Positions 7,011 to 44,789 of a stretch of 64,000 nt of DNA are shown piece after piece. Both the position numbers and the translations under genes were made by a program. Source of the DNA: Candidatus Oxydemutatoraceae bacterium (GTDB taxonomy: Bacteria > Pseudomonadota > Gammaproteobacteria > Poriferisulfidales > Oxydemutatoraceae); NCBI GenBank assembly GCA_965220085.1, contig CBDCOZ010000003.1, forward strand, positions 1,888,001 to 1,952,000, given 5' to 3'. Positions within the stretch are counted from its first letter, which is position 1; each line of letters starts with the position of its first letter. The notes beneath the pieces were generated by a model. The model made no database searches. It saw only the letters and a program-made list of their open reading frames with translations, and was not told where the DNA came from.

Positions 7011-7039
7011 TCGTATTACCGGTGTTACATATTCCCGTA

Positions 7040-7070: not shown

Positions 7071-7074
7071 CCGG

Positions 7075-8012: not shown

Positions 8013-8099
8013 AAAATGATTTTATAGCAAAGGTCTTGCGGGACCTGCGCGCGTCCCGGCAAACCCTCCGCATTTGGCAGGTTAGCCCGCCCCAAACTA

Positions 8100-8743: not shown

Positions 8744-8939
8744 AACGCACCTCCCATATTCCCATAATGCATAAATTGCGTAATTTACATATTATGCACA
8801 AACCGCAGAAGGCCCGCAAGTAGCAATATGTGCTACAAATGATACAAAATAGCAAGATGGTGATACATCCGGTGCTATACGAGCAATTGCGACAAGCCCG
8901 CCGGTGATTGACGACACCAACTCTACGATATTGCCCTCG

Positions 8940-29072: not shown

Positions 29073-29102
29073 TTACTTCTCAGTCGCCTTTATCTCTATT
29101 GA
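29073..29102 (-). pseudogene. 3' end of the small antitoxin-like gene (SIEIKATEK*), cut by IS481
   Basis: 29032-29102 nearly identical to 16402-16472. Confidence 0.8.
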
Positions 29103-30155
29103 TGTATGATGCCAGTACATATTGGAAACTCTGGGCAAATATTGTGTAATTTGTGCCATAGGTGTTTGGAGCCTCAATCCATAATGTGGTCGTTGGGTAT
29201 TAAACCATAGCAGGTAGTCTATCATACGCTCATTGAATTCCCGAATATCGGTCAGCAACAAGCCCTCTTCAAACTCCACAAATTCTTCCTGGAGCGTGCG
29301 GTTAAAGCGTTCATTGAATGCGTTCATCTTCGGACATTTGGGATACGTGTAGCAGTGCCGGATACCTTGCTCTTGCAGGCAGCGATCAAACGCGCCGCAG
29401 AACTCGGAGCCGTTGTCGGTGAGCACTTGCTCTATCTTGGCGGGGAACACTTCCATCATCAGCTTCATAAAGAACTCGGCAGCGATGCTGTTGCCACGAG
29501 GGACGCCGATAGCAAAGCCAAACCGGCTATACAAATCTACGGCCGTGAACAGATAGCGACGCTGACCTTGAATAAACCGTTGCACGGTATCCATAGCGAT
29601 GCAATGCCCGATACGCTTTGCATTGAAACCCTTTTCAAGACGCTCCTTGCTCTTGCTTTGCGTTGTGCGTTGCCGACGCGGTTTTGCGGGCACCCAGCGC
29701 ATCTTATCGGCTTCGCCGGCAATCAGTCGCGCGATGGTGCGCGGCTTGGGACAACGCAAGCCGCGCTCGTCACACCACGGTTGAATCAGCAGGTATATCT
29801 TGGGTGCGCCGTAGGGATAGTTTTCGCGGTGTCGCCGAATCTCGTCGATAATCTCCTCAGGCCAGTCGCGCCGGCGTGGCTGGCGCGGGCAAGTGCTCTG
29901 ATTGATTAAGCCGTTAATGCCATAAAGCCGATATTGTCTCCGCCACTCATAGAGTGATGATTTGCTGATGTGGTAAGCGTCCATGCTGGCTTTTATGTTG
30001 TGGTTCTCCCATAATATAAGGGCTTCAAGTTTCTGTTTTGCTTTATAGCTCATAGTTGCCTCGTCTATTGAAAAAGCAGCTATTTTATAGAAACCTTTGA
30101 CGCCGTAGCCGATGTGTTGATATTGCATGTCGGCTACGTTTGTTGTTGAAGCCAA
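29073..30155 (-). CDS. IS481-family DDE transposase (stop codon lies outside the IS)
   Basis: HTH plus rve core: AMDT, LTDNGSEF, NERFNRTLQEEF, NTQRPH. Confidence 0.93.
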   Translation of the reverse strand: MASTTNVADMQYQHIGYGVKGFYKIAAFSIDEATMSYKAKQKLEALILWENHNIKASMDAYHISKSSLYEWRRQYRLYGINGLINQSTCPRQPRRRDWPEEIIDEIRRHRENYPYGAPKIYLLIQPWCDERGLRCPKPRTIARLIAGEADKMRWVPAKPRRQRTTQSKSKERLEKGFNAKRIGHCIAMDTVQRFIQGQRRYLFTAVDLYSRFGFAIGVPRGNSIAAEFFMKLMMEVFPAKIEQVLTDNGSEFCGAFDRCLQEQGIRHCYTYPKCPKMNAFNERFNRTLQEEFVEFEEGLLLTDIREFNERMIDYLLWFNTQRPHYGLRLQTPMAQITQYLPRVSNMYWHHTSIEIKATEK

Positions 30156-30212: not shown

Positions 30213-31346
30213 TCACGCATCGGGGCTGTGCAAAAGATCCCGGTAGTTTTCCGGCGTGATTGTCTCGTAGCTTGCATTGTCATAGGTAGCAAGCCACTCT
30301 TTAGGCGGTGCCTTCTTAGTTGCTTTCCATTTGAACCCGTAGCCGTGCAGACGGCCGCCGCGCTCTTCAATCAAATCAATCTCCTTGCCGTCGTAAGTCT
30401 GCCAGAAGTAATAGTTCGCATGCACCCCGCCGTAGGCGTTCGCTTTCAGTCTTTCCACGACCATGAAGTTCTCCCACAGTTGTCCGACATCGTTTCGTAA
30501 CTCCAGTTCATTGAAGTTTGCAATCAGTGCGTTGCGAATACCCAAGTCATAGAAATAGTACTTGCCCATCTTGCTGATCTCTTTTCGCAAGTTGCGCGAG
30601 AAACTGTTAAGCCGGAATATCACAAAGGACTTTTCCAGCAAGTCGAGATAGCGGGTGACGGTCTTGTTATCCATGCCAAGGCTTGAGCCCAGCTCGGAAG
30701 TAGATACCTTGCTTCCTACCTGAAAGGCGAGGAGCTTCAGCAGGTCAATGAGCGGCTTAGCACGCCGGACCCGGTCAAACTCAAGGATGTCCCTGACCAG
30801 ATAGCTGTCCTTGATCTCAACAAGCCGTCGTTGCCTGTGCGCATTGTTCTCAGCAGTGACGATGGCAGGGTATGACCCGTAAATCAGATACTCGGAAAGA
30901 CGCTGCTCAATCTCATGCCATGTGTGAACCGAGTGCAACTCGCTCAGCGAGAGCGGGTACATCGTCATCACGACTTTCCTGCCGGTCAACGGTTCGTCTG
31001 CAACATTTGCCAGATCAAAAGAGGAAGAGCCGGTAATGACGATATGAATATCGGGGACTTGATCGATCAACAGCTTCAGTGCCCTGCCGACATTCTGTAT
31101 CTTTTGTGCTTCATCAATGAACAGCAGGCGGGCATCGCCGAGCATGTTTTTCATCAGGTGCAAATCACACTTGGCGAAGGTGTCGGCAAACTCAAGCTCA
31201 TCGGCAGTGAACGCCTTGTAGGGCAAGTCGGTCGTCTGCAGAAACGCCTGCGCCAGAGTCGTTTTGCCAACCTGACGCGCCCCGTAGATGATGAGGATTT
31301 TGCCTTTCTCCAAGTAATCCTCTATGTTGAGTTGCCTTGGAATCAT
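30213..31346 (-). CDS. AAA_14 ATPase with DUF4143 C-terminus
   Basis: GARQVGKTT, FIDEAQ, TGSS, YFYDLG, EIDLI. Confidence 0.9.
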   Translation of the reverse strand: MIPRQLNIEDYLEKGKILIIYGARQVGKTTLAQAFLQTTDLPYKAFTADELEFADTFAKCDLHLMKNMLGDARLLFIDEAQKIQNVGRALKLLIDQVPDIHIVITGSSSFDLANVADEPLTGRKVVMTMYPLSLSELHSVHTWHEIEQRLSEYLIYGSYPAIVTAENNAHRQRRLVEIKDSYLVRDILEFDRVRRAKPLIDLLKLLAFQVGSKVSTSELGSSLGMDNKTVTRYLDLLEKSFVIFRLNSFSRNLRKEISKMGKYYFYDLGIRNALIANFNELELRNDVGQLWENFMVVERLKANAYGGVHANYYFWQTYDGKEIDLIEERGGRLHGYGFKWKATKKAPPKEWLATYDNASYETITPENYRDLLHSPDA

Positions 31347-31548
31347 GGGCGGATTATCACACAATTCCTATGATTTAGCAAAATTATGGGAATTGTATTC
31401 CTATAATTCAACTGAATTATAGGATTTCCAAGCGTTGACTCGCTATGAAACCCAAGAGATATAAAGGCGAACGGCAGGTTTTCTGACTGAAGCAAACCAT
31501 ACTTTGGAATAGTCAAGACTATTCTAAAGTATAGTTTATAATGGTCGG

Positions 31549-32670
31549 ATGCGTTATCTACTACCCAATCTGCAAAAAGATCTGAAGAAAAAGATGGTTA
31601 TATTGGCCGGTCCCCGGCAATGCGGCAAAACCACTCTGGCCAAATCCCTGCTCAATAAAAACGGTGAGTACCTGAATTGGGACATCGCAACCGACCGCAA
31701 AATTATCCGCGACATTGCCTGGCCCAAAGATGCATCCCTCGTCGTACTGGATGAGTTGCACAAAGCCCCCAAGTGGAAAAACTTATTGAAAGGCGTGGCG
31801 GATGAGTTTGCCAACACCCCGCCGATTCTAGTCACTGGCAGTGCCCGCCTGAATGCTTTGCGCAAAACCGGAGATGCTTTAACCGGGCGCCATTATTTCT
31901 ATCACTTACATCCTATTGACATCGCCGAGTCCCGTCTCTTTCTGCCCAAGATGCCGCTTGCCAAACGAATACAGAGACTGTTGCACACCGGCGGGTTTCC
32001 CGAAGCTTTCCTCCATCCTGAGGAAAGCCTGCGGCTGCGTAATGACAGAATGGAGCTAATCGTGAAAGAAGACAGTCACAGCTTAAGCCAAATCAGTTCC
32101 TGGCGCGGCGCGGTTGATTTGGTGGAATTATTGCGCGCCTCCGTGGGCAAGCCGATCAACTACGGCAGCCTCGCACGAGACCTGAGTATCTCTCCTCCGA
32201 CCGTCAGGAATTGGATTACGCTGCTTGAGAATCTCTATATCGTCTTTCTCATACCGCCTTACTCGCGCTATCTCACGCGTAGCATACGCAAGGAGAAACG
32301 AGCATTTTTCTATGATTGCGCCGCGGCATACGACGACACGCAAGGCGCGCAACTGGAAAATCTGGTTGCATGCTGCCTGCTCAAATACATTCAGTTCAAA
32401 AAAGACACTACAGGTGAGAACTGGGATTTGTTCTATCTGCGTGACAAAGAAAAACGAGAGGTGGATTTTGTCGTGACACTCAACCGACGGGTACATTGGC
32501 TGATAGAAGTCAAAAAGTCGGACGATGCCATCGGCAATGGCCTTAGCTATTACACGAAGCGGCTGAAGCCGAAGGAATCCATACAACTGGTGCTACACCT
32601 TGACCGCGCCCAAGAGAAAGCCGGCATCAAAGTCCTGCCGCTTGGGGAATGGCTGGACGCGCTTGGCTAA
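31549..32670 (+). CDS. AAA_14 ATPase with DUF4143 C-terminus
   Basis: GPRQCGKTT, VLDELH, TGSA, GGFPE, EVDFV...IEVK. Confidence 0.9.
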   Translation: MRYLLPNLQKDLKKKMVILAGPRQCGKTTLAKSLLNKNGEYLNWDIATDRKIIRDIAWPKDASLVVLDELHKAPKWKNLLKGVADEFANTPPILVTGSARLNALRKTGDALTGRHYFYHLHPIDIAESRLFLPKMPLAKRIQRLLHTGGFPEAFLHPEESLRLRNDRMELIVKEDSHSLSQISSWRGAVDLVELLRASVGKPINYGSLARDLSISPPTVRNWITLLENLYIVFLIPPYSRYLTRSIRKEKRAFFYDCAAAYDDTQGAQLENLVACCLLKYIQFKKDTTGENWDLFYLRDKEKREVDFVVTLNRRVHWLIEVKKSDDAIGNGLSYYTKRLKPKESIQLVLHLDRAQEKAGIKVLPLGEWLDALG

Positions 32671-32711
32671 TTTATTAAATAGCCTCGTCGCTTGTGGCGA
32701 CCATATCATTC

Positions 32712-34685
32712 TCAATACAAAATCCGAACCAGATCTTTGTTCAAGCCCAACATATTAAGCCACTTCAATAAACCTATCTGTGCGTAGCCATCTATATAAA
32801 CGCGGCTGTTGACAGATACTTTTCTCAAGTCGGTTTCGCATTCGCCAAGAACAAAGTATGAGCTTCGCACTTTATAAAGCTTATCCGCTTCAATTTCTTC
32901 AATCGCGTCGTCAAGTAATACTTCGCCACTTGCCGCCATCATGTTGTACAGAGTATCGGTTGCAGTTTGTCGATCAATATGCAAGCGTAACTTGCCATCT
33001 TCATCTGTCTTTGTTTTCGGTTTTTCAGTAAGAGAAAAAACCTTGTAACCTATATCAAGACCATTCTCCAATAGGCCTGCCTCTTCTTTTATTTTGTCGC
33101 CGGCCCGATTAACCCGCTCTATGCATATTGAGGATATAACTGGTTGCAGATCATTCTTCTTGCAAAAATCAAAAATAGACTTACTCGTTTTGGAATCAAT
33201 TTCTTCATCGCGCTGGACAAGAATAAATTTACGCTTGCCGCCATCTTCTTTATTTAAGTCCATCACCGCATGCGCAGTCGTGCCGGAACCGGCAAAGAAG
33301 TCCAGCACAATATCTCCTTCACTAGTTACCATATTTAATATATCTCTAATCAACCGCACTGGTTTCTTGCCATTCTTAAATTCTACCCCACCTTCAGTAG
33401 CTATATTCATCATGTCTTTGTAATATCCCTTCCACCAATCACCACGGATTTTTCTCAGTCCATACCAAGGTTGAAAGTCATGCGTGTCACCTATTGACTG
33501 GGCTAAATTAATCAATTGCCGAATCACCCCGTTGGAGTTTTTAAAAATTGTATAGCTTTTATTTAACTTACTTACAGATATAATCTTCCCTTCTTCCAAC
33601 TGCTTCTTCTCTTCTTCAGAAAAATTCAACTTGACCTGACACACAGCATCTCGGCAGATATGCTCTGCATCTTCATGCACAAACTGGCGGAATTGCTCAT
33701 TTCTCTCATATAAGTGAGAAATATTATCCAAACTATTTTTAGAAACAGACGGAATCTTCCCCGCATCAATTTTCTCTCTTAGATATTCCTTCAGGGTCCG
33801 CCGGTCACCGGTGACCGAATCGTAATATATAGAGTAGTGTGTATCCCATTCACGCTTTTCATAAAGCAGTTGGAATGGTTGCTTAAGATTTCTATCTTTT
33901 CCATAAACAAGAACAAATTCGCCATTCTTTACAATCTCACCTTTCTGGGCTGTAGCAACTTTCATCCCTTGAGTAACAGACATCTCCACAAAAAGGTGCG
34001 AAATGAAATTATATTCCCCAAAAATTTCATCACACATGATTTTTAAGTTAGCTTGCTCGTTATCACCAATGGAAATAAAGATAACACCGTCTTCGGTTAG
34101 CAAGTCACGCGCCAGTTTCAATCGCGGGTACATGGCAAAAAGCCAACCGGAATGATTCTTTGTACCGAATACATTCTCAAAGAACTGAACCGCGTCTTCA
34201 TCCAGACTGTACCTTTCTATCAGTTCCGCTTCACTTTCCTTGAAGCTATCGTTGTAGACAAAGTTTGCAGTGTCTGTGTTATAAGGCGGGTCAATGTAGA
34301 TTGACCTAATCTTGCCTTCGTAGTTTTGGCGCAGAATTTTCAACGCATCCAGATTATCGCCACGGATGATAATATTCTCTGTCGTGTCGAAATCTTTCGA
34401 CTGCTCTTTTTCTACCTGTAACTCCTTATGTGTAGGTTCATCCGCTTTGATTCTCGCCAGCCCTTTGCCGGCAAAATTCAAACCATAACCCTGATTCTCC
34501 GTCGCATAGCCGGCAACACCCAGCAGGTTTTTGAGGGCTTTAATATCCAGCAAGCCATCGCCATTAATCAGCTCGGGAAAAATAGAATGTAATTGCTCCA
34601 ATTTATCCTGCCTGCATATTGATGTCTCTACGTTAGAATCAATGGTCTTAAACCCAGACTGCTCGGCATCCTTTTTATCAATCAT
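32712..34685 (-). CDS. mod: type III restriction-modification methyltransferase (Mod)
   Basis: IRGDNLDALK, IYIDPPYNT, KPVRLI, LDFFAGSGTT; ATGA overlap with res. Confidence 0.93.
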   Translation of the reverse strand: MIDKKDAEQSGFKTIDSNVETSICRQDKLEQLHSIFPELINGDGLLDIKALKNLLGVAGYATENQGYGLNFAGKGLARIKADEPTHKELQVEKEQSKDFDTTENIIIRGDNLDALKILRQNYEGKIRSIYIDPPYNTDTANFVYNDSFKESEAELIERYSLDEDAVQFFENVFGTKNHSGWLFAMYPRLKLARDLLTEDGVIFISIGDNEQANLKIMCDEIFGEYNFISHLFVEMSVTQGMKVATAQKGEIVKNGEFVLVYGKDRNLKQPFQLLYEKREWDTHYSIYYDSVTGDRRTLKEYLREKIDAGKIPSVSKNSLDNISHLYERNEQFRQFVHEDAEHICRDAVCQVKLNFSEEEKKQLEEGKIISVSKLNKSYTIFKNSNGVIRQLINLAQSIGDTHDFQPWYGLRKIRGDWWKGYYKDMMNIATEGGVEFKNGKKPVRLIRDILNMVTSEGDIVLDFFAGSGTTAHAVMDLNKEDGGKRKFILVQRDEEIDSKTSKSIFDFCKKNDLQPVISSICIERVNRAGDKIKEEAGLLENGLDIGYKVFSLTEKPKTKTDEDGKLRLHIDRQTATDTLYNMMAASGEVLLDDAIEEIEADKLYKVRSSYFVLGECETDLRKVSVNSRVYIDGYAQIGLLKWLNMLGLNKDLVRILY

Positions 34686-37579
34686 TCGTTTGCTCCTATA
34701 TCTTTCAACAAGTAGGCAAGCTCCTGTTTGTTGATGCGTTTTCTAAATTTTACCAGTACCTTGGCTTCGGAAGTTTGAGCGGCATATTGACTCAACGCAT
34801 TAAAGAAACGTTCGCCGTATTGTATTTTTTTCTTCTCGTCTGCGGGAATATCGCTTTCACTGTCATAGCCCTTTGTTTCCACAACTAAGAATAGCTTTTT
34901 CTCTGCAGTTGTCCGTATATAGTAAGCAAAGTCAGGGCTATAAGACTTATACGGAGTCGGGATAGACAGCCGTGGCAATTTAGCGAACACGACGATTCTG
35001 TCATCCCCAACCCGCTCAGGATCATCATTAACAATGTCGCGCTCAATTTTGGAGTCATAACAAATCTTGTCATAAAGATAGGCGGCCTTTGGTTCAGAAC
35101 TGGTATCCGTGTACTTGCCTAAGTAGGAAGCTTCCATTTGTTCTTTCAACTCACTACATTTATTGTCCCTGTAAAAAATACTTCTCGTATCAATCGCTAT
35201 TTCACCTTTGAATTCATAGTCTATCGACTCGATTACATTGCTGTGGATATGGTCTTTAACGAATTTTGAGATAAGTTCATATGCCCGCTTCGGATTCGAA
35301 GAAATCTTTTCCTTATCCAATGACCGGAACAACTTCAGGCAAAACTGCAAAGGCAATTTTTCTTGCTCGGCAAAATTCGCAACAAATTCGGCATACTGGT
35401 CCTCACTAAAGATATCCGCCCTGCCCAGAAAAGTTTGCTTTTCAAACACAATCTGATTGTTCTGGTGGTCATAGGTTCTTTTTTCAACCTTTCTTTCAAT
35501 CACAGGCACAGATTCGTTTTCAAAAGACGCTTTGACATTCGCTATCAACTTATCATCATCTACATTGCGATAGATGATTTCTGCCTTGTTAGTGATGGTG
35601 TGCCACAAGGATTCAAATTCCTTAAATTTGTCGGCTCTAATGCCAACCTTGTCTTGCTTCCGATTACGATTAACTACGGGCGGACGTACAGACTTTTTGA
35701 ATGCATCCACCAACATATCGTATTTTTCCTTAAGACCACTGAGCTTGTCGGGGAGATTATCTTTATTCTCTACAAGAAAGTCAGCAACAGGCATATTGAT
35801 ATGCCATGCTTCGTCCCCACTTTCATCTAGGCTGATGACTTGTCCATCCTCCAACCATGTAGAAAGCCGATTGACCTGCGATGCATTTAAACCTAATTTG
35901 AGCAAACCCGCACGAGTCAGCCTCTCAGCGGTCAAACTGCCCTTGGTAATCTCATTTTGAATACCTTCAATAAAATTCTTTTCCTGCCCGGAAACGACAA
36001 CATCCAGCGTATTCACTTCATAAAACCTACTTTCACTGTCCTCGCAGGACTTGATAGTTTGCCTTCTGCCATTACGATCTACTACAAGCCTCAGGCCACG
36101 TCCGACTTGTTGTCGACGCGTGGTCTCCTTACTTGTTGAAGCAAGTTTGCAGATAGTCAAAATATTCGGATTGTCCCAACCTTCCTGTAGCGCCCACACG
36201 GAAAAAATAAACCTGAGTGGTTCCTGAGTAGATAGTAACCGTTCCTTATCGTTAAGAATAAGATTAATACCATAATTCTCTTTTTCCTGATTAGTCCCTT
36301 TGTCGCCAGAGAAGTAACCTTGGTGGACACATAGCCGATGTTCATTGTCGTAGTCCTTATTTAGATATTCATGGTAGGAATCAGACAAGGGCTCTTGTAA
36401 CTTCTCTTGCCTTTGCTTGGTATATTCTTCTTCAAATATGATTTTGATACGAGGGTTATCACCCCTGAAGTCCGCAACACTGGGGATAAAAAAGAGGGAT
36501 AGGGCTTTAATACCCCGATCAAACAGATCTTTTTCTTTTTCAAAGTGGAGCGCTATGGTTGCCTTTATCATCTCTCGCACAGTATCGTCAGCAATATCGT
36601 AACTCGGCGAGGATAAATCCTGCTTGGTACCATTGCTCAAAATAACCTTATCCTGTTTTACTCTAAGGCTGTGGAAATCATGTGCTTTATCACCAGTGAC
36701 AGTGGATATGTTCTGACCGTGCGTGATGTTAGCCTTATGCTCTATGCCATCTTTGAAATAATACAGACTCAGACCGTTGCGGCCACCACGATAAAACTTA
36801 ATGCTTGAATTCTCATCCGTAACGGTGGATACGCTGATGCGTTTAACCAGATAATCACGAAAGGCGGTGATACTATCCAAAGTGTAAACAACATTGGATA
36901 GTTGGTTTTCTGCCTCCTGCGGGAAAGTAGCGCCAAAGCGCAAAAGTAATGATTCAGAAAAATATTTATCATAAGTGTTAGTAAACCCCTCTCCTTTCAA
37001 TAGGTGTGGCTCGTCAATAAACATAATCGGCTTCAACTTACTAATTGCTTCAAGCGGTGCTACTGCGCCTAACAGGCTTTCATTCGCTCTGGTAAGTATT
37101 TTGCTCTGTTTTTTTTGCCCTGTTATGGACGCACTGGTTAAAATCAGCACCGAAAACTCCCGCTCATTACTGATGTAATTCTCAACTTGATGAAGTCCGT
37201 TTTTGTCACCATAGACGTACTGCTTGAGTCGCTTGCCGTACTCTTGGAAAAAATAGTCGGCGGTCAAGTTTATATTCTGGATGATACCGGCACGAATAGC
37301 GAGACGCGGTACGAAGATTAAAAATTTTGTCACCCCGTGCCGCCGATTTATCTCATACATGGTTTTAAGATAGGTGAAGGTTTTTCCAGTGCCGGTCTCC
37401 ATGAGAATATCCAGCCTGAAATCGTCCTTCAAATCCGAAACCGGAATGTTCTGCTCGCCGCACAGTTGCTCAAGCCCCTCTCTTAGCGATACGCGACCAT
37501 TGAATGCATCGCTGTATTCAAGCACCTGCAGAATATTGCTGACGCAACTTTCCTGATATTCCTGTTTTTCGAATAACAT
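34682..37579 (-). CDS. res: type III restriction endonuclease/helicase (Res)
   Basis: METGTGKT, FIDEPH, LQEGWDNPN, QQVGRGLRL, PDF...VETKG nuclease. Confidence 0.93.
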   Translation of the reverse strand: MLFEKQEYQESCVSNILQVLEYSDAFNGRVSLREGLEQLCGEQNIPVSDLKDDFRLDILMETGTGKTFTYLKTMYEINRRHGVTKFLIFVPRLAIRAGIIQNINLTADYFFQEYGKRLKQYVYGDKNGLHQVENYISNEREFSVLILTSASITGQKKQSKILTRANESLLGAVAPLEAISKLKPIMFIDEPHLLKGEGFTNTYDKYFSESLLLRFGATFPQEAENQLSNVVYTLDSITAFRDYLVKRISVSTVTDENSSIKFYRGGRNGLSLYYFKDGIEHKANITHGQNISTVTGDKAHDFHSLRVKQDKVILSNGTKQDLSSPSYDIADDTVREMIKATIALHFEKEKDLFDRGIKALSLFFIPSVADFRGDNPRIKIIFEEEYTKQRQEKLQEPLSDSYHEYLNKDYDNEHRLCVHQGYFSGDKGTNQEKENYGINLILNDKERLLSTQEPLRFIFSVWALQEGWDNPNILTICKLASTSKETTRRQQVGRGLRLVVDRNGRRQTIKSCEDSESRFYEVNTLDVVVSGQEKNFIEGIQNEITKGSLTAERLTRAGLLKLGLNASQVNRLSTWLEDGQVISLDESGDEAWHINMPVADFLVENKDNLPDKLSGLKEKYDMLVDAFKKSVRPPVVNRNRKQDKVGIRADKFKEFESLWHTITNKAEIIYRNVDDDKLIANVKASFENESVPVIERKVEKRTYDHQNNQIVFEKQTFLGRADIFSEDQYAEFVANFAEQEKLPLQFCLKLFRSLDKEKISSNPKRAYELISKFVKDHIHSNVIESIDYEFKGEIAIDTRSIFYRDNKCSELKEQMEASYLGKYTDTSSEPKAAYLYDKICYDSKIERDIVNDDPERVGDDRIVVFAKLPRLSIPTPYKSYSPDFAYYIRTTAEKKLFLVVETKGYDSESDIPADEKKKIQYGERFFNALSQYAAQTSEAKVLVKFRKRINKQELAYLLKDIGANE

Positions 37580-37584
37580 AGGAG

Positions 37585-38475
37585 TTATAAATGTAAGCAA
37601 CTCTTAATTGCGTCAGCTTTTTTGAGCTTATCCGCTTTCTTAGGTTCAGTCAAAGCAATATGATCTAGCTTACCTTTTACAGAAGATTGAGAAATATTCT
37701 TCTCTTTGCAATCCTTGATTAAATCGTTCGTATATTTATCCGGCTTCCTTAAGCTATATCGACCAAGCCTATACCCAAGTAACTCTTTCTTATCCTGAGA
37801 TCCTTGTACCCTGGTCTTCTTGTTTTTTATTCTTAGCCCTTTCTCCTTCACCAACCCGGTAACCTTTTTTATTATGTCTGTCTTCTCACCACAACTAAGA
37901 TTACGCTTAGAGCTTATCGCAATATCATCTATGTAGCGTGTGTATGTGCACCCGTTCTTTTCTAAGTCCTTAAAAAGTTTATGCTCTTCACCTCCGGCTA
38001 ATAGCACAAGATTAGCAAGGTGAGAACTGGTAGAAACTCCTTGTGGAAGTCCCCCATCATATGTCGTCAGTTGTGTCAAAAGTTCAGCCACTTCAGGGGA
38101 AAAGCGGAAATGATACTTAAATAAGTGGCAAATCATATCACTCGTTACAGACGGGAAAAAATTTGCTATGTCCATAGTAATTAGAACGGTTGAGCGCAAG
38201 TGAATAGAAGCACTTCCTTGTACTGAACGACCTTCTATTCCGCCACAAACGAAAGGTGGGTATTCTGCTCTCCTTAATATTTTATCTTTGATTCTTGACT
38301 GAATTGGCTTTAGAGGCATCTTTGAGGGTGTAATTGCACGGGCACCTTTCATATATGTATGATAATAACTTGCAGAGTTAGTAGCTATACACCTCAAAGA
38401 TGCCTCTTCGTAACCCAAGCATTTTCCAAGGCTACGCACAGAGCGGATAGGTCTATGTGAGTACAGCTGATACAT
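37585..38475 (-). CDS. retron-type reverse transcriptase (Ec48-like by recalled motifs), 296 aa
   Basis: MDIANFFPSV, LPQGVSTS, YTRYIDDIAIS, NKKT; SAxxH at the NAxxH position; ELLG at the VTG position. Confidence 0.88.
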   Translation of the reverse strand: MYQLYSHRPIRSVRSLGKCLGYEEASLRCIATNSASYYHTYMKGARAITPSKMPLKPIQSRIKDKILRRAEYPPFVCGGIEGRSVQGSASIHLRSTVLITMDIANFFPSVTSDMICHLFKYHFRFSPEVAELLTQLTTYDGGLPQGVSTSSHLANLVLLAGGEEHKLFKDLEKNGCTYTRYIDDIAISSKRNLSCGEKTDIIKKVTGLVKEKGLRIKNKKTRVQGSQDKKELLGYRLGRYSLRKPDKYTNDLIKDCKEKNISQSSVKGKLDHIALTEPKKADKLKKADAIKSCLHL

Positions 38476-38602
38476 ATCTTGTCCTCAGGTAAATGATGAT
38501 GGCGAGTAAACTAATTGCTATCTTGGTAAGGAGCCTAATAAAAGCCTCCTCAATCCTGATATATATCAGTCTACCCCGTTCGGTTAATATTATTATTTTC
38601 AT
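38453..38602 (-). CDS. 49-aa hydrophobic small protein (MKIIILTERGRLIYIRIEEAFIRLLTKIAISLLAIIIYLRTRYVSAVLT), putative retron effector
   Basis: Manual translation; AGGAGG SD 7 nt before ATG; overlaps the RT start by 23 nt. Confidence 0.6.
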   Translation of the reverse strand: MKIIILTERGRLIYIRIEEAFIRLLTKIAISLLAIIIYLRTRYVSAVLT

Positions 38603-38999
38603 AATAATACCTCCTAATTAGGTTAGCCTGAACTTAACTCAGTCAGGTCAATCTGAGTTGTCTCACAATGAGACAAAAGCCTCTTGTGAAATATCTCAGT
38701 GTGAACACTCAGCTTACGAACGGGATACTCGCCACCACCATGTAAAGCCTCTGCTGTTTTAACAACAGAGGTCTGACACAAGTATTTCGCAATGCCATGT
38801 AGCAAACGGAATTCGTCGTATTGTCCTGACTCGCTTTCACGCCCTCGTTACAATACACGAACCCGATACTTTATGAATCGCAATTCTTGCATCGTAGCAA
38901 CAGACTTCTACATAGGTAGAGTACTGTCAGATTAAAGCTCTTGCCTTAACCTATATTTAGTGTTCACTAACACTAATTAGTGCCCCCTTCAGGGGTGCG
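38603..38999 (-). ncRNA. putative retron msr/msd-like structured RNA (boundaries approximate)
   Basis: Dense hairpins (AACTCAG/CTGAGTT, TTGTCTCA/TGAGACAA, CCTCTG/CAGAGG, GTATTGT/ACAATAC, TCTAC/GTAGA) and long-range IRs (GTGAACACT/AGTGTTCAC, TAGGTTA/TAACCTA) directly upstream of the RT operon. Confidence 0.6.
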
Positions 39000-39005
39000 T
39001 CGGAT

Positions 39006-39033
39006 ACTATATCTAGTTTTGAAAATTATGCAA
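39006..39033 (-). promoter_or_regulatory. sigma70-like promoter for the retron-RM operon
   Basis: Minus strand TTGCAT-16 nt-TATAGT. Confidence 0.5.
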
Positions 39034-39209
39034 CCCCCCACATATTGCGATATCTGGCGGGGACTTAGCAATTATCTTGGCACAGCAGTGGTATGTTAAT
39101 TGCTAGGTTCTTGACTCTATTAGGGTTATTTGCCACAAGCTACTGATGGCAGAATCATCCCACAGAAACTTGCGACTCTAGCGGTTGCTAATCTAACAAG
39201 GTTGCATGG

Positions 39210-39716
39210 CTAAACCCGCCGCGCATCGTATGCCCAGTGCAGTAGCGACTGGCGTTGGCGGGGCCGGCAAGCAAAGTCTTTGCTCCGGCAGTTCTTGGTT
39301 ATCTGCATCAGGTGGCGGCGATATGCTTTCCAGCGTTTAATCTGGCGCGTGTCATCTTCGCTGCGCCGCCCAAGATAATAGCGGCAATACCATTGAAACC
39401 AGCCGCGCGGGTCTTGCGGGTGAATCCATCCCTTGTCGCGCCACACACTGAGCGGCTGGCTGGCATTGACACCGAAGAAGTTCAGCTCTTTGTGGCGGAT
39501 GCCATCAGGCGATAGCTTTGCATCCTTGAACCAATCCGGCGGCAAGTCGGATGGCTTGTCACTGAAGTACAGCCCGCCGAATACACCGAGCGCAAGCATC
39601 TGCACAGGTGTCAGTTCGGGTTCAAACTCTTTGGCAAAGTTTTTACCGGCAGGCTCCGTGAGTGTATAACGATAATCCTTCTGATAGCCGTCGGAATAGC
39701 GTACTGTCTTCATCAT
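39210..39716 (-). CDS. conserved hypothetical protein (LGVFGG / DPRGWFQWYCRYY motifs)
   Basis: Intact ORF; truncated diverged paralog at ~45226-45577 and a remnant near 48795-48845. Confidence 0.8.
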   Translation of the reverse strand: MMKTVRYSDGYQKDYRYTLTEPAGKNFAKEFEPELTPVQMLALGVFGGLYFSDKPSDLPPDWFKDAKLSPDGIRHKELNFFGVNASQPLSVWRDKGWIHPQDPRGWFQWYCRYYLGRRSEDDTRQIKRWKAYRRHLMQITKNCRSKDFACRPRQRQSLLHWAYDARRV

Positions 39717-39868: not shown

Positions 39869-40210
39869 CTACTCAGCCTTAGCCTTAGCAACCTTTTCGG
39901 CCATGCGGATATACTCTCTAATCAGGGCAATGAAACGCGGATAGCCGGACTCTTTGGCAATAAACTCAAATGTTGATTCAACCTGTTCCGCAGAGTAACC
40001 CTCGCGGACAAGACCGCCAAAAGCCTCTTCAAGAAACGAAGACGGGTAACCGCGCGCACCGTCCAGAATAATCTCTGCCTTCTCGCCGGATTTAATTGCC
40101 GGGACAAGAAACTTCTCTCGAAATATAGTTCCGTTACCCTTCCCATCTTCCGGATAACGCCCGCCCGGGTGCTGACTGAAATCTTCCGCAATGTTAATCG
40201 TTTGATTCAT
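39869..40210 (-). CDS. STAS-like (DUF4325-like) protein
   Basis: INIAEDFS.HPGGRY...G..FRE...LDGARGYPSSFLEEAFGGL. Confidence 0.8.
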   Translation of the reverse strand: MNQTINIAEDFSQHPGGRYPEDGKGNGTIFREKFLVPAIKSGEKAEIILDGARGYPSSFLEEAFGGLVREGYSAEQVESTFEFIAKESGYPRFIALIREYIRMAEKVAKAKAE

Positions 40211-40340: not shown

Positions 40341-40515
40341 ATGGAGTTTGTTATGTTTGTCTGCCGTTTTGTCTTGATTGTCTGCGCCCTGTTGCCAGTG
40401 CCGTTTGCCAGTGCGGATGCTCCCCTGCATGAAGCCGCCAAGGATGGCACCCCCGCCGATATTGTCCGCCTGGTCGCTGAGGGGGCGGATGCAAACAAGC
40501 GTGACGAGAATGGCG
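40341..40515 (+). pseudogene. truncated secreted ankyrin-repeat gene
   Basis: Signal peptide then PLHEAAKDG...IVRLVAEGADANKRDENG; collides with an opposite-strand signal-peptide fragment (~40515-40724). Confidence 0.65.
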
Positions 40516-40801
40516 AATGCTTCGCCGGTTTGCGGTTTTTGGAGGCACTCGGCGTTGACGCCATAGGTTGCGCCGGGGGGGATGGCGCGGAATTGGGCGG
40601 GGTTTTGGCTGTTGTTGCGGAGGCGGATTTTGTCGCAGGCGCGGACTTCGGGCGCGAGGATTGCGGCGCAGGCCATCGCAACCGCAAGGGCGGCGATTCG
40701 CTTGGACATCGTGCGGTTGCGCATGACGGGATTATGGCGCCGTCGCGCCTGAAATGAAATTAAAATCCGCCCCCCGTCGTTTTGCGTTATAATTGCCGCC
40801 G

Positions 40802-42028
40802 ATGTCGACCGCTTTGAACGCCGCTTTGGAAACGCCGGGGGTTTTGCCGGGGGTTTTGCCGCCGCCTGCGCTTTCCGCGCCGGAGGTTGACGCGGAAAGG
40901 CGCGCGCTGGCGGCTCTGGCGGAGACCGACTGGGATTTTCGCGGCGCAAGCACCGGCGGCGCTACCCACGGCTTTCATCCTTATCCGGCCCGCTTTATCC
41001 CTCAAATTCCCGCCGCCCTGATTTGCGCCTTCACCCGGCCGGGGGAGGTTGTCTACGACCCGTTTGTCGGCGGCGGAACAACCTGCGTGGAGGCCAATCT
41101 GGCCGGCCGCGACGCGCTGGGCGGCGATGTGAACGGACTCGCCGTTCTTGTCTCGCGCGTTAAAACCCGCCCGTTGCCGGAGGGCGCCGTTGCGGCGATT
41201 TTGGAAACCGCCGAGCGCGCGCGCAAGCGCGTGGAAAACTCAAACGGCGAATCTTGGGAGACGCCCGCGCCGTCCGCCGAATGGTTTGAGGGTTTTGTCG
41301 CGCGCGAAATCGCCGCCGTCAAGGGGGAGATTATGCGCCTGCCGAGCGTCCCGCGGGAATTTTGCCTTGTCGCGCTTTCGGCGATTTTGGTCGGCGTTTC
41401 CAGGCAGGACAGCGACACGCGGTATGTCCGCGTCCGCAAGAATTTGTCGTCGGGCGACGCGGTGGCGCGCTACGGGCGGCAACTGCGAAAAATGCTGCGC
41501 CTGATGGACTCCGCCCGCGACGCCCTTTCGCGGGGGACAACCCGCGCGCGCGTTTCCGACAGCCGCGTCCCCGGCGCCTTTGCGGAAAACTCCGCGGACT
41601 TTGTCGCGACCTCCCCGCCGTATCCGAACGCCTACGATTATCATCTGTATCACCGCCACCGCCTGCTGTGGCTGGGCATGGACCCCGCCGAATTAAAGCG
41701 GCGCGAAATCGGCGCGCACGCGCATTACTCGCGCCGGAACGGCTTGGACGAAAACGACTTTCGCCGCGACATGGAGAAGGTTTTTCGCGCATCGTCCCGC
41801 ATCCTGAAGCGCGGGCGGCATTTCGCCCTGGTGGTGGGCGACTCCATTCTGCACGGGCGGCGCGTCCGCAACAGCGAGGTGGTGAAGGCGGCGGCGGCGG
41901 CGGCTGGATTTTCGCCGGTCGCGGATTTCCGCCGCCGGATGGATTCGCGGAAAAAATCCTTCAACCCCGCGCACGGCAACATCCATGCCGAGGACATTGT
42001 GATTCTGCGAAACGACCGGAGGCGATGA
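40802..42028 (+). CDS. amino-methyltransferase 1 (N4-C/N6-A)
   Basis: THGFHPYPARF, DPFVGGGTT, TSPPY. Confidence 0.9.
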   Translation: MSTALNAALETPGVLPGVLPPPALSAPEVDAERRALAALAETDWDFRGASTGGATHGFHPYPARFIPQIPAALICAFTRPGEVVYDPFVGGGTTCVEANLAGRDALGGDVNGLAVLVSRVKTRPLPEGAVAAILETAERARKRVENSNGESWETPAPSAEWFEGFVAREIAAVKGEIMRLPSVPREFCLVALSAILVGVSRQDSDTRYVRVRKNLSSGDAVARYGRQLRKMLRLMDSARDALSRGTTRARVSDSRVPGAFAENSADFVATSPPYPNAYDYHLYHRHRLLWLGMDPAELKRREIGAHAHYSRRNGLDENDFRRDMEKVFRASSRILKRGRHFALVVGDSILHGRRVRNSEVVKAAAAAAGFSPVADFRRRMDSRKKSFNPAHGNIHAEDIVILRNDRRR

Positions 42029-43566
42029 TTCAGCGCGAACTGATCTTTGCGGAGCATCCGCTTCGCCCGCGCGAGCGCGAACTGATCTTTGCGGAGTATC
42101 CGCTTCGCCCGCACGAGCGCGAACTGGCGCTGATGGAGTTGCGCGGACTGTTGCCGGACGCGCGCATTCGGGGCGGCGGCGGCGCGTTGCTGCTGAAAAC
42201 ATCCGACCCGGACGCGGACGAGAAAATTCGCCGTCTGGCGTTTTTTTCCCGCTTTCGCGGCGACGGGGGCTGGTGCTTCACGGCGCAACGCGAACTGGAG
42301 GCGCTGGACGGCGGGCGTCCGGGCGTCCGCAACATTCGCTATCTGGCGCACGGACTGCACGAATACAAGGGGCGCTTTTACCCGCAACTGGGCAAGGCGC
42401 TGATGAACGCGGCGGGCGGCGGACAAGGCGCGGCGCTGGACCCTTTCTGCGGATGCGGAACGCTGCTGCTGGAGGCGGCGCTGAACAACACGCCGGCCGT
42501 CGGAGTGGACATCAATCCGGTGGGCTGGATGATTGCGCGCGCTAAAATCGCCGCCCTGCGCCTGGGCGAAAAAAGCGCCGAAAGAATGCGCGACGCCTTC
42601 GCCGGCGAAAAGCCGCCCGCCGACGCGCCCCCGATTCCGGACGGCGCAAACATGGAATACCTGCGGCGCTGGTTTCCCGAATCCAATCTGCGGGAAATCC
42701 TGCGGCTGGACGCGGAAATTCAGGGGGCGTTTTCCGGCGCGGCGCGGCTTTTTCTGCGGGTGGTTTTGAGCGAATCACTGAAGCGCTTTTCATGGCAGGC
42801 CCCGGGCGAGCAACGCGTTCGGCGCAGAAAAGATTCGCCGCCGGACAATGTGCGGGCGTTTTTCCGCGAGCGGCTTTTCTTTCACCTCGCCAAGACGGAC
42901 GCGTTGCGGCGGACGCGGCGGACGACTCCGCCGCGGGCGGACGCGCGGCTGGGCGACGCGCGCAGTTTGCCGGTGGATTCGGGCTCGGCGGACTTTGTGG
43001 TGACCTCGCCGCCCTACGCGACGGCGTTGCCGTACATAGACGCGGACCGCCTGTCGCTGTTTTTCTTCGGCCTGGCGGACCGCAAAACATTCGCCGACCT
43101 GGAGCGGCGCTCCATCGGCAACCGCGAAATATCCGTCGGCGACCGCCGGGCCTGGGAGGCGCGAATCGCGCGCGCCCGGGCGGATTCGGAGTTGCCGGGG
43201 GAGGTTTTGGACTTTTTGGAGGAGGTGCGGGACCGCAACGCCGCGTCGGATTCCGGCTTTCGCCGCCGCAACACCGCCGCATTGCTGTGCAAGTATTTTC
43301 TGGACATGCGCGACGCCCTGCGGGAAATGCGCCGGGCGCTGAAGCCGCGCGGCCCGGCGGCGCTGGTGGTCGGCGACAACTTCACCGTCGCCGGCGGGCG
43401 GCGGATGGAGATTCCCACCGCCCGCTTTATCAATCTGATTGCGGAGCAAAACGGCTTTCGCCTGCGCCGCGCCGTCTCCACCGCGCCGCCGACCGCCTAC
43501 AACATATACTCCCGCAACGCCATACGGCGGGAGACCGTCTCCTTTCTGCAAAAGGCGGAAAAATGA
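42025..43566 (+). CDS. amino-methyltransferase 2 (N4-C/N6-A)
   Basis: HGLHEYKGRFYPQL, DPFCGCGT, TSPPY; ATGA overlap; 42-bp in-frame duplication at the N-terminus. Confidence 0.9.
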   Translation: MIQRELIFAEHPLRPRERELIFAEYPLRPHERELALMELRGLLPDARIRGGGGALLLKTSDPDADEKIRRLAFFSRFRGDGGWCFTAQRELEALDGGRPGVRNIRYLAHGLHEYKGRFYPQLGKALMNAAGGGQGAALDPFCGCGTLLLEAALNNTPAVGVDINPVGWMIARAKIAALRLGEKSAERMRDAFAGEKPPADAPPIPDGANMEYLRRWFPESNLREILRLDAEIQGAFSGAARLFLRVVLSESLKRFSWQAPGEQRVRRRKDSPPDNVRAFFRERLFFHLAKTDALRRTRRTTPPRADARLGDARSLPVDSGSADFVVTSPPYATALPYIDADRLSLFFFGLADRKTFADLERRSIGNREISVGDRRAWEARIARARADSELPGEVLDFLEEVRDRNAASDSGFRRRNTAALLCKYFLDMRDALREMRRALKPRGPAALVVGDNFTVAGGRRMEIPTARFINLIAEQNGFRLRRAVSTAPPTAYNIYSRNAIRRETVSFLQKAEK

Positions 43567-44669
43567 GGGCGACCCTGCTGCGCGGCGAAAGGAGGACCGG
43601 CGCGGCCCTCGCCGAAATTCTTGAGGGCGGAATCCGGCGAGACTTCCGCTTTGCCGTCGCCTACGCGCGCGCGTCCGGGGCGGCGATTTTGGAAAAGCCG
43701 CTCCGGCAATTCATCAGCGGCGGCGGCGCGGCGCAGGGCATTGTGGGAGTCAATCAGGGCAACACCTCGTATCAGGGGCTGGCGCTGCTGGCCGATGTCA
43801 TCGGCGACGGGCTGCATTTGCGATGCGCACGAAAGGGCGGCGCGATTTTTCATCCGAAACTGTATTTCTTCGGCGACGCGGCCGGGGAAGTTGCGCCCGC
43901 ATCGGTCGTGGTTGGCTCCTCCAACCTGACCCGCGGCGGGCTGCAGGGCAACGAGGAATGCGACGCGCTGCTGGAAAACTTCTCAACGCGCGACGACAGG
44001 GAGTTTGCCGAGTCGGTCGGGGATTTCTGGGAGGGACTGCGCGTCAACAGCGCTAACTTCGCCACCATTCGGGCGAATCCGGACATCCTGAAAGCCCTGC
44101 TGGAGTGCGGCGCGCTGGTTGACGAAAATAAATCGGCGAAAAGGGCCGCGGCGACTCCGAAGGTAATTGAGGAAGCGTTGTCCCGGATTCTGGCAGATGC
44201 CGCCGTTTCGCAGCATGGAATTTTCGCCATGACGCTCAGCGGCTTTGACACCAGCAAGCGAGGCGCGGATCCGGTCGTTCTCATTCCGGTGAGCGCCCGC
44301 GACGAGGACCCGAGATTCTGGTTTTGGCCGGATTTTTTCCAGCGCGAAAAAAAGCTGCTCGGCATGCATTTGGATTCGTCGGTGGACATGGACGGCGAAA
44401 CGCATCCGGAGCAGGTGCGGCTTTACGACTATCCGGACAAGACCGAGTTTCGCCTGAAGTCCGAGATTGTGAAGCGCCGCGGAAACAAGGGCGACATTTT
44501 GGTTGTCCGCCGCAACGGCGACGAGATGCGCCTTTCCGTGATTCGGCGGGATGCGCCGGAGCATGCGACGTGCTTGCGCCGCCTGACTAATCGCGTTTCC
44601 CCGATGAAGCAGTACGGCTATTTCAACCGCATGTGGAGGCGGGGGATGCGGACAGGCTCATCTGTATGA
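43563..44669 (+). CDS. PLD (HKD)-family restriction endonuclease
   Basis: FHPKLYFF...VVGSSNLTRGGL..NEE; ATGA overlap with MTase 2. Confidence 0.85.
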   Translation: MRATLLRGERRTGAALAEILEGGIRRDFRFAVAYARASGAAILEKPLRQFISGGGAAQGIVGVNQGNTSYQGLALLADVIGDGLHLRCARKGGAIFHPKLYFFGDAAGEVAPASVVVGSSNLTRGGLQGNEECDALLENFSTRDDREFAESVGDFWEGLRVNSANFATIRANPDILKALLECGALVDENKSAKRAAATPKVIEEALSRILADAAVSQHGIFAMTLSGFDTSKRGADPVVLIPVSARDEDPRFWFWPDFFQREKKLLGMHLDSSVDMDGETHPEQVRLYDYPDKTEFRLKSEIVKRRGNKGDILVVRRNGDEMRLSVIRRDAPEHATCLRRLTNRVSPMKQYGYFNRMWRRGMRTGSSV

Positions 44670-44789
44670 CGCCCCCTGCGCTATGTAGCCGATTGGCGCA
44701 CCCCCGCCAACATCGCCGCTGAGTCATAAAATCAGTTGATGGCAGGGCACCATAATACAAAGCGCAAGCGGCGATAGCCGGAACAGCTG

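Follow-up and report, generated by a model that had tools for sequence, protein, structure and literature searches.

Gene content of the locus

The window, a stretch of 64,000 nucleotides from a Candidatus Oxydemutatoraceae bacterium, contains a foreign gene cluster of 6.4 kb on the minus strand (Table 1). Read from 5' to 3', it consists of a folded leader, an open reading frame (ORF) of 49 amino acids, a reverse transcriptase (RT) gene with a YIDD motif, and the genes res and mod of a type III restriction-modification (RM) system. The ORF list agrees with this anatomy, as first described in an earlier note on this DNA. Only 5 nt separate the RT stop codon (37587-37585) from the ATG of res. 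The genes res and mod share the 4 nt ATGA, and a scan of the minus strand gave no terminator-like site at the RT-res or the res-mod junction; sequence and scan confirm what had been claimed for these junctions. The window as a whole is a mosaic of islands, with an IS at 29073-30155, a methyltransferase segment of 64-68% GC at 40.5-44 kb and two AAA_14/DUF4143 genes.

Table 1 Features of the retron-RM locus (positions refer to the window)
Feature	Position	Strand	Description
Variable block	31529..39218		7.69 kb; contains ATPase gene, mod, res, RT, small-protein (SP) ORF, leader and promoter candidates
AAA_14/DUF4143 ATPase gene	31549..32670	+	Convergent with mod, inside variable block
Mod, type III methyltransferase	32712..34685	-	657 aa; DPPY, FAGSG; own AGGAG Shine-Dalgarno (SD) sequence; ATGA overlap with res
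Res, type III restriction subunit	34682..37579	-	965 aa; ResIII helicase and C-terminal endonuclease; no SD
Type VI retron RT (by sequence)	37585..38475	-	296 aa; YIDD
49-aa ORF	38453..38602	-	Candidate SP toxin effector; overlaps RT start by 23 nt
Start-codon hairpin (predicted)	38586..38611	-	11 bp; covers 3' end of SD and first two bases of SP start codon
Leader	38603..39005	-	Non-coding, highly structured; candidate msr-msd part of type VI hybrid RNA
Leader arm (predicted)	38717..38741	-	Pairs with 38573-38582 and 38493-38507, at both ends of SP coding region
Composite stem-loop (predicted)	38775..38893	-	About 119 nt; candidate reverse-transcription template (msd-like), from helix list
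Promoter candidate of the earlier note	39006..39033	-	TTGCAT-16-TATAGT
Promoter-like site	39071..39099	-	TTAACA-17-GATAAT; consensus match 10/12

Transcription and translation of the unit

The promoter had been placed directly upstream of the leader (TTGCAT-16-TATAGT). The -10 hexamer of this candidate matches the consensus at five of six positions and the -35 hexamer at three of six, and the consensus promoter scan did not list the site. Within the variable block, the site TTAACA-17-GATAAT is the only consensus match on the minus strand ahead of the unit; promoter-like matches in the region are, however, not above chance (18 versus 16.0 +/- 3.8 in shuffles). Between position 39071 and the start of res, the consensus scan found neither a terminator-like nor a promoter-like site on the minus strand, and the sole terminator-like match on this strand is weak and lies within mod (33764-33749). 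From these weak consensus scans, SP, RT, res and mod are probably co-transcribed as a single operon, in line with the earlier view that a retron-type RT and an intact type III res-mod pair are apparently transcribed as one unit.

SD sequences precede SP, RT and mod, but not res. With no SD of its own and only 5 nt between its ATG and the RT stop codon, res is probably translated by reinitiating ribosomes that have just finished RT.

Retron type

Among the PADLOC models, RT_VI matched the RT best (8.4e-64, 213.5 bits, model positions 2-278 of 279), followed by RT_V (181.9 bits) and RT_IV (105.8 bits). RT_VI was also the best model for 30 of the 40 nearest RT homologues scanned, i.e. P0002-4 and 37 representatives. 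In an RT tree made without the Mestre reference sequences, in which the type labels are PADLOC models, the query groups with P0002-4 (support 100/99) inside a clade of 11 rows (support 96/95), in which the best hit of every other row is RT_VI. P0002-4 come from ENA metagenomes and are the nearest relatives, with 48-50% identity; this branch of RTs is sparsely sampled. Judged by its sequence, the RT belongs to the type VI retron lineage.

Retron-Eco6/Ec48 belongs to type IV and has a 2TM effector. Its RT is of the related IV/V/VI group, and the RT at the locus had been taken for Ec48-type. This assignment is ruled out by an RT_IV score far under that of RT_VI, by the position of the RT in an RT_VI clade, and by the lack of a 2TM gene in the unit (ORF list and Pfam domains). 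The earlier note also regarded the usual effector as absent. Instead, the likely effector is the 49-aa protein, which, unlike the 2TM protein, is encoded inside the candidate RNA. RT groups IV, V and VI are described as monophyletic in a recent preprint (bioRxiv 10.64898/2026.04.27.721009).

The leader and the candidate hybrid RNA

A hairpin-rich leader of about 400 nt had been claimed, and its predicted structure goes far beyond chance: the minus strand of 38440-39005 has an MFE of -203.8 kcal/mol, compared to -145.5 +/- 6.2 in 100 shuffles (z = -9.4). When a window of 566 nt was slid along the locus, three positions over the leader gave -194 to -204, versus -124 to -164 for 27 over RT, res and mod, which are similar in GC to the leader windows. 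One leader arm is predicted to clamp the SP coding region by a 15-bp and a 10-bp helix, which correspond to the inverted repeats I1 (19 nt, 84%) and I5 (11 nt, 91%), and the hairpin over the start codon is also found as a perfect inverted repeat of 9 nt (I8). By likeness to SL3 of Retron-Sen3, the composite stem-loop is a candidate for the reverse-transcription template. Rfam has no family for the leader (best score 25.8 bits versus a gathering score of 90), and the search returned only two sub-threshold miRNA-like matches. Stability, clamps and start-codon hairpin, all from thermodynamic folding, match features reported for Retron-Vpa2 and Retron-Sen3 and make the leader plus the SP coding region a candidate type VI hybrid RNA.

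A strong SD (AGGAGG) is located 7 nt ahead of the ATG of the 49-aa ORF. AlphaFold2, run on the single sequence, predicted one helix (residues 2-48, pLDDT 89.7), and the protein has a hydrophobic core at residues 24-39 (KD maximum 2.87) and a net charge of +5. No homologue was found in the comparator loci or by sequence searches, and the protein atlas gave no usable match. By analogy to described type VI SPs, which have 55-79 aa and are thus longer, it is likely to be the retron effector, and its toxicity is presumed.

The characterisation of type VI retrons is recent and comes from two preprints of 2025-2026 (bioRxiv 10.1101/2025.10.22.683967 and 10.64898/2026.04.27.721009). Retron-Vpa2 from Vibrio parahaemolyticus, the subject of the first, is of the type whose PADLOC model fits the RT at the locus best. 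[quoted passage not shown] The predictions for the locus are alike in these points. This comparison is one of described features and not of RT sequence identity. Unlike in Retron-Vpa2, the SP ORF at the locus directly overlaps the RT start and a co-oriented type III res-mod pair follows. For the Retron-Sen3/cl2075 lineage, the second preprint reports a long-range inverted repeat that connects ncRNA and SP region, a sequestered SP RBS and, as candidate template, a long internal stem-loop, all of which resemble predictions for the locus. It differs in its gene order SP-HTH-RT, with the HTH protein as post-translational antitoxin, in its SP of 79 aa, whose C-terminal helix is amphipathic, and in the distal repeat arm, which is downstream of the SP stop, whereas at the locus both arms pairing with the leader are inside the SP coding sequence.

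The missing HTH partner

A Cro/C1-type HTH gene is absent from the locus: the three small ORFs between promoter and RT have no Pfam match, and no further ORF at the locus fits an HTH partner. In 46 of the 66 comparator loci, by contrast, the RT has an HTH_3 ORF as its direct neighbour. According to the Sen3 preprint, the cl2_1 HTH is present in about 78% of 158 type VI entries and missing in about 22%; the HTH is therefore usual but not universal. From its gene content, the locus is a type VI retron without HTH, an atypical member of its type. Both characterised type VI retrons are reported to need the HTH to keep the SP harmless (bioRxiv 10.1101/2025.10.22.683967; 10.64898/2026.04.27.721009), and since it is absent here, the mechanism cannot be exactly theirs.

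Loss of the HTH could have left a disabled remnant, whose upstream region now serves merely as promoter and leader of the RM genes. The absence of a gene that most comparators have next to the RT would fit, as would an SP that is shorter than those described and without a detectable homologue. But the RT covers nearly the whole RT_VI model with its YIDD intact, the SP ORF has kept its strong SD, and the predicted fold of the RNA is exceptionally stable and holds this ORF in specific clamps. Moreover, HTH-less entries make up about 22% of those in the Sen3 preprint. Decay of the retron is, therefore, a very unlikely explanation.

The type III restriction-modification genes

Res contains the domains PF04851 (8.4e-17) and PF19778 (3.9e-25) and matched the PADLOC model REase_III (8.7e-122); its match to NF012027 (4.1e-136, 455 bits) is under the cut-off of that model (564). 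Its start at ATG 37579 is backed by tblastn, in which residue 1 aligned with the starts of four homologues. Mod contains PF01555 (1.5e-33) and matched MTase_III of PADLOC (4.7e-127), and no simple-sequence repeat tract was found in mod. By these sequence criteria, Res and Mod are a standard, intact type III pair. They resemble EcoP15I in the ResIII helicase with C-terminal endonuclease, in the N6_N4 methyltransferase with DPPY, and in the overlap of the genes. The gene order of EcoP15I is mod then res. At the locus, the order is reversed and res is apparently coupled translationally to the RT gene.

Four homologous RM loci were examined, and the retron is absent from all of them. In each, the gene ahead of res (tmk, a leuB-like gene, a RhuM/Fic gene or mod) has the same direction and lies within 15 nt of the res start; the order res then mod is found in two, and defence-like or toxin-antitoxin-like passenger genes occur within the operon in three. 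The res homologues of L116, L117 and L093 have an SD.

Foreign origin of retron and RM genes

The genome has a GC content of 55.8%, compared to 41.2% in leader plus SP, 39.7% in RT, 42.4% in res and 40.9% in mod; only 3.8% of the 1-kb windows of the genome are under 43%. Tetranucleotide correlations of the retron were 0.62 with res and 0.62 with mod, but -0.15 with the genome. In addition, the variable block is missing from one related genome. A contig of 9047 nt (run X3) aligns to 31370-31528 with 4 differences and to 39219-39689 with 35 differences; between both flanks it skips 7690 nt and has 39 other letters in their place. Inspection by eye revealed no repeats at the block boundaries 31528/31529 and 39218/39219. 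Composition and joint absence in a related genome suggest a common foreign origin of retron and RM genes.

The AAA_14/DUF4143 ATPase gene shares the block but is host-like in its GC content (51.3%) and its tetranucleotides (r = 0.70 against the genome), and it is doubtful that it is part of the unit. It was also considered as a recurrent partner and rejected, being absent from all comparator loci.

Retron and RM genes may also be plain neighbours that landed successively in one hotspot, each with its own promoter, so that their adjacency is meaningless. GC3 of RT (0.357) differs somewhat from that of res (0.46) and mod (0.43), which makes it conceivable that two AT-rich modules entered one hotspot separately. 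The island mosaic of the window, the many unrelated genes that adjoin homologous RM loci and a linkage that does not recur (see below) point in the same direction. However, retron and RM genes are far closer in composition to each other than to the host, the related genome is without both together, and no minus-strand promoter-like site was found within the RT gene. Furthermore, res lacks an SD directly after the RT stop, whereas the three homologues named above have one. On this evidence, independent insertion is rather unlikely.

Recurrence of the linkage

Recurrent linkage of related RTs to res-mod, which a survey of neighbourhoods should reveal if the two belonged together, was not found. 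A Res or Mod homologue was present in 0 of 120 loci with RT homologues, about half of which are too short to show a downstream res, and an RT in 0 of 24 Res loci. These comparator loci are distant relatives (RT at most 41%, Res at most 44% identity) and leave out the neighbourhoods of P0002-4. RT profile scans yielded 13 loci in genome contigs, 71 in metagenome contigs and 29 in viral contigs, all with at most 41% identity and none inside the clade of the query. A single-protein pattern scan of genome contigs gave no RT relative, and tblastn of the RT against plasmids and phages nothing above 37%. No contig was common to the list of RT matches and the best 120 of 7999 Res matches, and no genome with both RT and RM was found in a sample of 400 genomes of the class. 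The earlier statement that no retron type with Res/Mod partners has been described holds for the literature searched, including passages of Mestre 2020; retrons and type III RM were reported for one genome, but not together (PMC6053426). Since the pairing was seen nowhere else, a working link between retron and RM is unproven.

A retron guarding the RM system?

There is precedent for an abortive-infection module that watches over a restriction enzyme. PrrC is an anticodon nuclease encoded inside the type Ic RM locus EcoprrI, in the same orientation as the RM enzyme, which is reported to hold it latent until an inhibitor from phage T4 activates it (PMC1484252); prrC is stated to be always linked to an RM locus (PMC3458546). 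It is tempting to speculate that the retron monitors the type III enzyme in a similar way, or that Res and Mod replace the HTH, so that an anti-restriction protein would free the SP toxin and the infection would abort. The usual HTH is gone while Res and Mod occupy the operon, the SD-less res follows the RT closely, and both systems seem to have been acquired together as foreign DNA; three of the four homologous RM operons carry other defence-like or toxin-antitoxin-like genes. A PrrC-like module would be expected to show recurrent linkage, but the locus is a single instance among all RT loci, Res loci and genomes of the class sample mentioned above. Also, the preprints name phage recombination systems and inhibition of RecBCD as triggers of type VI retrons, and not anti-restriction, and the tight res junction occurs with housekeeping genes upstream, too. 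While recurrent linkage and physical latency were reported for PrrC, the linkage here is a single case. We regard such a guard as improbable.

A more specific version is that a type VI retron swapped its HTH antitoxin for the type III enzyme. Res and Mod, or an RT made together with Res, would silence the toxin, and anti-restriction or DNA-end-protecting phage proteins would release it. To this we give little credence as well, and any guard function of the retron over the RM system is speculative.

A model for the locus

On balance, by a small weight of the evidence, we favour the view that the locus is one cassette gained by horizontal transfer, probably organised as a single operon, and encodes two self-sufficient and complementary phage defences. 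The promoter would drive a hybrid RNA of about 550 nt, with an msr-msd-like template in its 5' part and a 3' part that encodes the 49-aa presumed toxin. The hairpin over the start codon and the two long-range helices that clamp the coding region would leave the toxin untranslated in the resting state. If the system resembles Retron-Vpa2 in this, cues from the infection, presumably phage functions for recombination or for inhibition of RecBCD, would let the RT copy the template; the new DNA may then open the hybrid RNA, the toxin would be made and the cell would abort the infection. Res would be made by reinitiation from RT ribosomes and Mod from its own SD. The RM system would be the first to act and cut unmodified phage DNA, and the retron would kill those cells in which the phage disables DNA-end processing. 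Retron and RM would be linked by shared transcription, translational coupling and joint transfer, but not by a shared mechanism. That the mechanisms are independent is suggested by the fact that RT and RM co-occur nowhere else among the sequences examined and that homologous RM loci are without a retron.

A seemingly intact type VI retron without HTH would probe how far repression at the level of the RNA alone controls the toxin. Apparently, Res is translated only off RT ribosomes, which makes the locus a testable case of two defence layers that are co-regulated and co-transferred. If the two systems were interdependent, a long shot on present evidence, the guard idea would extend from RecBCD to restriction enzymes; and if the RM system had indeed been swapped in for the HTH, this would be the first retron dedicated to guarding RM, an analogue of PrrC-EcoprrI built on a reverse transcriptase.

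Results

An ORF reading of the minus strand at 32712-39100 gave, in this order, a non-coding leader, an ORF for 49 amino acids, a reverse transcriptase (RT) gene, res and mod, as an earlier note had described; the distance of 5 nt from the RT stop to the res ATG and the ATGA overlap of res and mod were confirmed as well. ATG 37579 is the start of res, since residue 1 aligned to the first residues of four homologues. In a consensus scan, no minus-strand terminator-like site was seen at the RT-res or res-mod junction, again in line with the note; the sole match on this strand is weak and lies within mod. The promoter proposed at 39033-39006 is weak, with 3/6 and 5/6 hexamer matches, and the scan favours 39099-39071 (minus strand, 10/12) instead, with no minus-strand promoter-like site from 39071 to the res start; promoter-like matches across the region (18) are not commoner than in shuffles (16.0 ± 3.8).

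Features of the gene cluster, predicted RNA elements and homologous type III loci
Feature	Coordinates	Strand	Basis or gene order
~119-nt stem-loop, candidate template	38893-38775	-	predicted fold
Leader arm pairing with both ends of the 49-aa ORF (15-bp and 10-bp helices)	38741-38717	-	predicted fold
11-bp hairpin hiding the SD end and start codon of the 49-aa ORF	38611-38601 with 38596-38586	-	predicted fold
49-aa ORF	38602-38453	-	ORF reading
RT gene (YIDD)	38475-37585	-	ORF reading
res	37579-34682	-	ORF reading and tblastn
mod	34685-32712	-	ORF reading
Second type III system of the same genome, contig 2 (L093)	mod 7894-9753, res 5009-7882	-	mod then res
Locus in genome G301 (L116)			mod, two unknown genes, RhuM/Fic gene, res
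Locus in genome G411 (L117)			leuB-like gene, res, Schlafen-AlbA_2/HATPase_c_4 gene, mod
Locus in genome G190 (L118)			mltG-tmk, res, M78 peptidase gene, DUF4411 gene, mod, holB

The RT matches only RVT_1 in Pfam. Among the PADLOC models it fits RT_VI best (8.4e-64, 213.5 bits, model positions 2-278 of 279), followed by RT_V (181.9 bits) and, far behind, RT_IV (105.8 bits), the Ec48 type. The observed anatomy in the earlier note holds, and its family call, an Ec48-type RT without its effector, fails. The nearest relatives in 5.8 billion clustered proteins are three metagenome proteins (P0002-4; 50, 50 and about 48-49% identity by BLASTP/alignment), with which the RT groups in a maximum-likelihood tree (support 100/99). 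All other members of the surrounding 11-row clade (96/95) have RT_VI as best match, the labels being those of PADLOC and the tree being free of published reference sequences. Of 40 near homologues scanned (P0002-4 and 37 of 149 listed representatives), 30 matched RT_VI best and 10 RT_V. The best non-self match in an exhaustive search of 50%-identity representatives reached 40% identity (128 matches at E <= 1e-30); judged by database sequences, the lineage is thinly sampled. Elsewhere in this genome, on contig 1, lies another RT-like ORF that is only distantly related (169989-170732, plus strand; L095; 27% identity, 345-aa frame).

Type VI retrons are described in two preprints as ncRNA, a small-protein toxin (SP), HTH and RT (10.1101/2025.10.22.683967; 10.64898/2026.04.27.721009). 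In Retron-Vpa2, a hybrid RNA of ~470 nt is reported to hold the template and the translationally repressed toxin ORF, with RBS and start codon within stem-loops and the 3' end paired to the 5' arm; msDNA induced by infection derepresses toxin translation (10.1101/2025.10.22.683967). In Retron-Sen3, the ncRNA is tied to the SP region via a long-range repeat, and the HTH protein is a post-translational antitoxin (10.64898/2026.04.27.721009).

The leader, called hairpin-rich in the earlier note, is structured beyond chance: leader and ORF (38440-39005, minus strand) fold at -203.8 kcal/mol, shuffles at -145.5 ± 6.2 (z = -9.4, 0/100 as good), and in a sliding 566-nt control on the same strand the three leader windows reached -194 to -204, the 27 RT, res and mod windows of similar GC -124 to -164. 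AGGAGG lies 7 nt 5' of the ATG of the 49-aa ORF. In their predicted fold, leader and ORF resemble the type VI hybrid-RNA design: similar to Retron-Vpa2, a small ORF within the RNA would have its start codon in a hairpin and its coding region paired back to the leader, and similar to Retron-Sen3 the leader would pair with the SP region over a long range. The ~119-nt stem-loop is a plausible template. The protein has a net charge of +5, a hydrophobic core (residues 24-39) and one predicted helix (pLDDT 89.7; AlphaFold2, single sequence). Sequence searches detected no relative of it, so the likeness to described SPs is one of design, not demonstrated homology. The effector that the note had called absent is presumably this ORF, and the part that is lacking is the HTH gene, in which the unit differs from Retron-Sen3.

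None of three small ORFs 5' of the RT gene has a Pfam match, and no HTH gene is present in the unit; the 49-aa ORF overlaps the RT start, the usual HTH gene position. An HTH_3 ORF abuts the RT in 46 of 66 comparator loci, each with a complete RT ORF preceded by 450 nt or more and some being duplicates (L029/L030 and L044/L045); most of the other 20 have either a long RT of type V-like kind or one that is very distant. Among 158 type VI entries, roughly 78% are reported to have a cl2_1-type HTH (10.64898/2026.04.27.721009). A member without HTH is therefore uncommon but not unprecedented. A decaying retron, weighed with both the missing HTH gene and the near-complete RT match in view, seems improbable to us. 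In two metagenome loci (L073, L076), a 331-aa ORF with a weak TIR match (PF10137, 4.2e-07) precedes a type VI-like RT in place of the HTH.

Neither Res (PF04851, PF19778; REase_III 8.7e-122) nor Mod (PF01555; MTase_III 4.7e-127) is truncated, both carry the expected motifs, and no repeat tract hinting at phase variation was found. Relatives of Res are plentiful (7999 at E <= 1e-30; best identity 66% among the matches listed). Four homologous loci were compared (Res 40-43% identity, tblastn). The one in the same genome has a Res 40% identical and a Mod with 61% identity in residues 1-231 and 45% at the C-terminus; the middle differs, as expected from a different target-recognition domain. In the other three, passenger genes lie between or beside res and mod. 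The G190 cassette as a whole is flanked by tmk and holB, and its res shares 4 nt with the end of tmk, an arrangement that resembles a promoterless insertion in a housekeeping operon.

In all four loci a gene of varying identity precedes res in the same direction and ends within 15 nt of its start. A tight junction is therefore typical of these loci and alone no evidence for a partnership with the RT. A Shine-Dalgarno sequence (SD) is absent at res in the window and present at SP, RT, mod and the res genes of L116, L117 and L093, which suggests that Res is probably made by ribosomes reinitiating past the RT stop.

That retron and restriction genes are simply independent neighbours is unlikely, if a serious minority reading, when set beside their composition and joint distribution. 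Leader with SP (41.2% GC), RT (39.7%), res (42.4%) and mod (40.9%) lie well below the genome (55.8%), of which only 3.8% of 1-kb windows fall below 43%; tetranucleotide usage of the retron correlates with res and mod (r = 0.62 each) but shows no such correlation with the genome as a whole (-0.15). In a related genome, seen on a 9-kb contig from the same study (sequencing run X3), 31528 and 39219 are separated by just 39 other letters where the window has 7690 nt, so that retron, restriction-modification pair and a convergent AAA_14/DUF4143 ATPase gene are present or absent jointly. The ATPase gene is not counted in the unit because its composition is host-like and it stands beside none of the comparator loci. 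No DNA match to RT or leader was found in forty related genomes.

Around this variable block, two divergent AAA_14/DUF4143 genes (23% identical; 30213-31364, minus, and 31549-32670, plus) flank the left boundary, and the related genome lacks only the right-hand one. An IS transposase gene (29073-30155, minus; rve integrase core and HTH domains) lies ~1.4 kb to the left. On the right, part of an orphan 168-aa gene (39210-39716) has a variant, ~83% identical to 39351-39544, on a 498-nt contig of run X2 at a depth of ~9900, which points to a very abundant relative of this fragment in those samples; runs X1 and X3 have it too. Neither this gene nor the DUF4325 (STAS-like) gene upstream of it (39869-40210, minus) matches PADLOC or NCBIfam. 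The stretch 40500-44700 (64-68% GC; two DNA-methyltransferase-like ORFs and one with a sub-threshold PLD-like match) is probably a further foreign defence or restriction-modification island of opposite compositional bias.

Discussion

Recurrent linkage of such an RT to res-mod was not found among the comparators, all of them distant. Of 155 loci from other genomes searched by tblastn, 120 had an RT match, 24 a Res match and 20 a Mod match, and none RT together with Res or Mod; in a 400-genome class sample (one genome unscored, one counted genome flagged unpublished), 11 other genomes had an RT relative (33-38% identity), 25 a Res relative and none both. All comparator RTs are at most 41% identical and outside the clade of the window RT, and only 36 of 76 complete RT loci have at least 3 kb downstream. 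In line with the earlier note, text searches of the literature and passages of Mestre 2020 and of a 2026 metagenome survey gave no description of a retron with Res/Mod partners. A guard in which Res/Mod take the place of the HTH has a precedent in PrrC with EcoprrI, going by the abstract (PMC1484252), and would suit an arrangement seen at this single locus; we give it little credence.

We favour, with moderate confidence, one foreign operon with two autonomous, complementary defences, a type III enzyme and a type VI retron without HTH. The enzyme would cut unmodified DNA, and infection would switch on reverse transcription and so release the RNA-caged toxin. Published triggers of type VI retrons, as given in the two preprints, comprise phage recombination systems and inhibition of RecBCD, functions that a phage could use to protect its DNA once cut. 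As such triggers could shield cut phage DNA, the pairing of retron and restriction-modification would make biological sense without any physical coupling.
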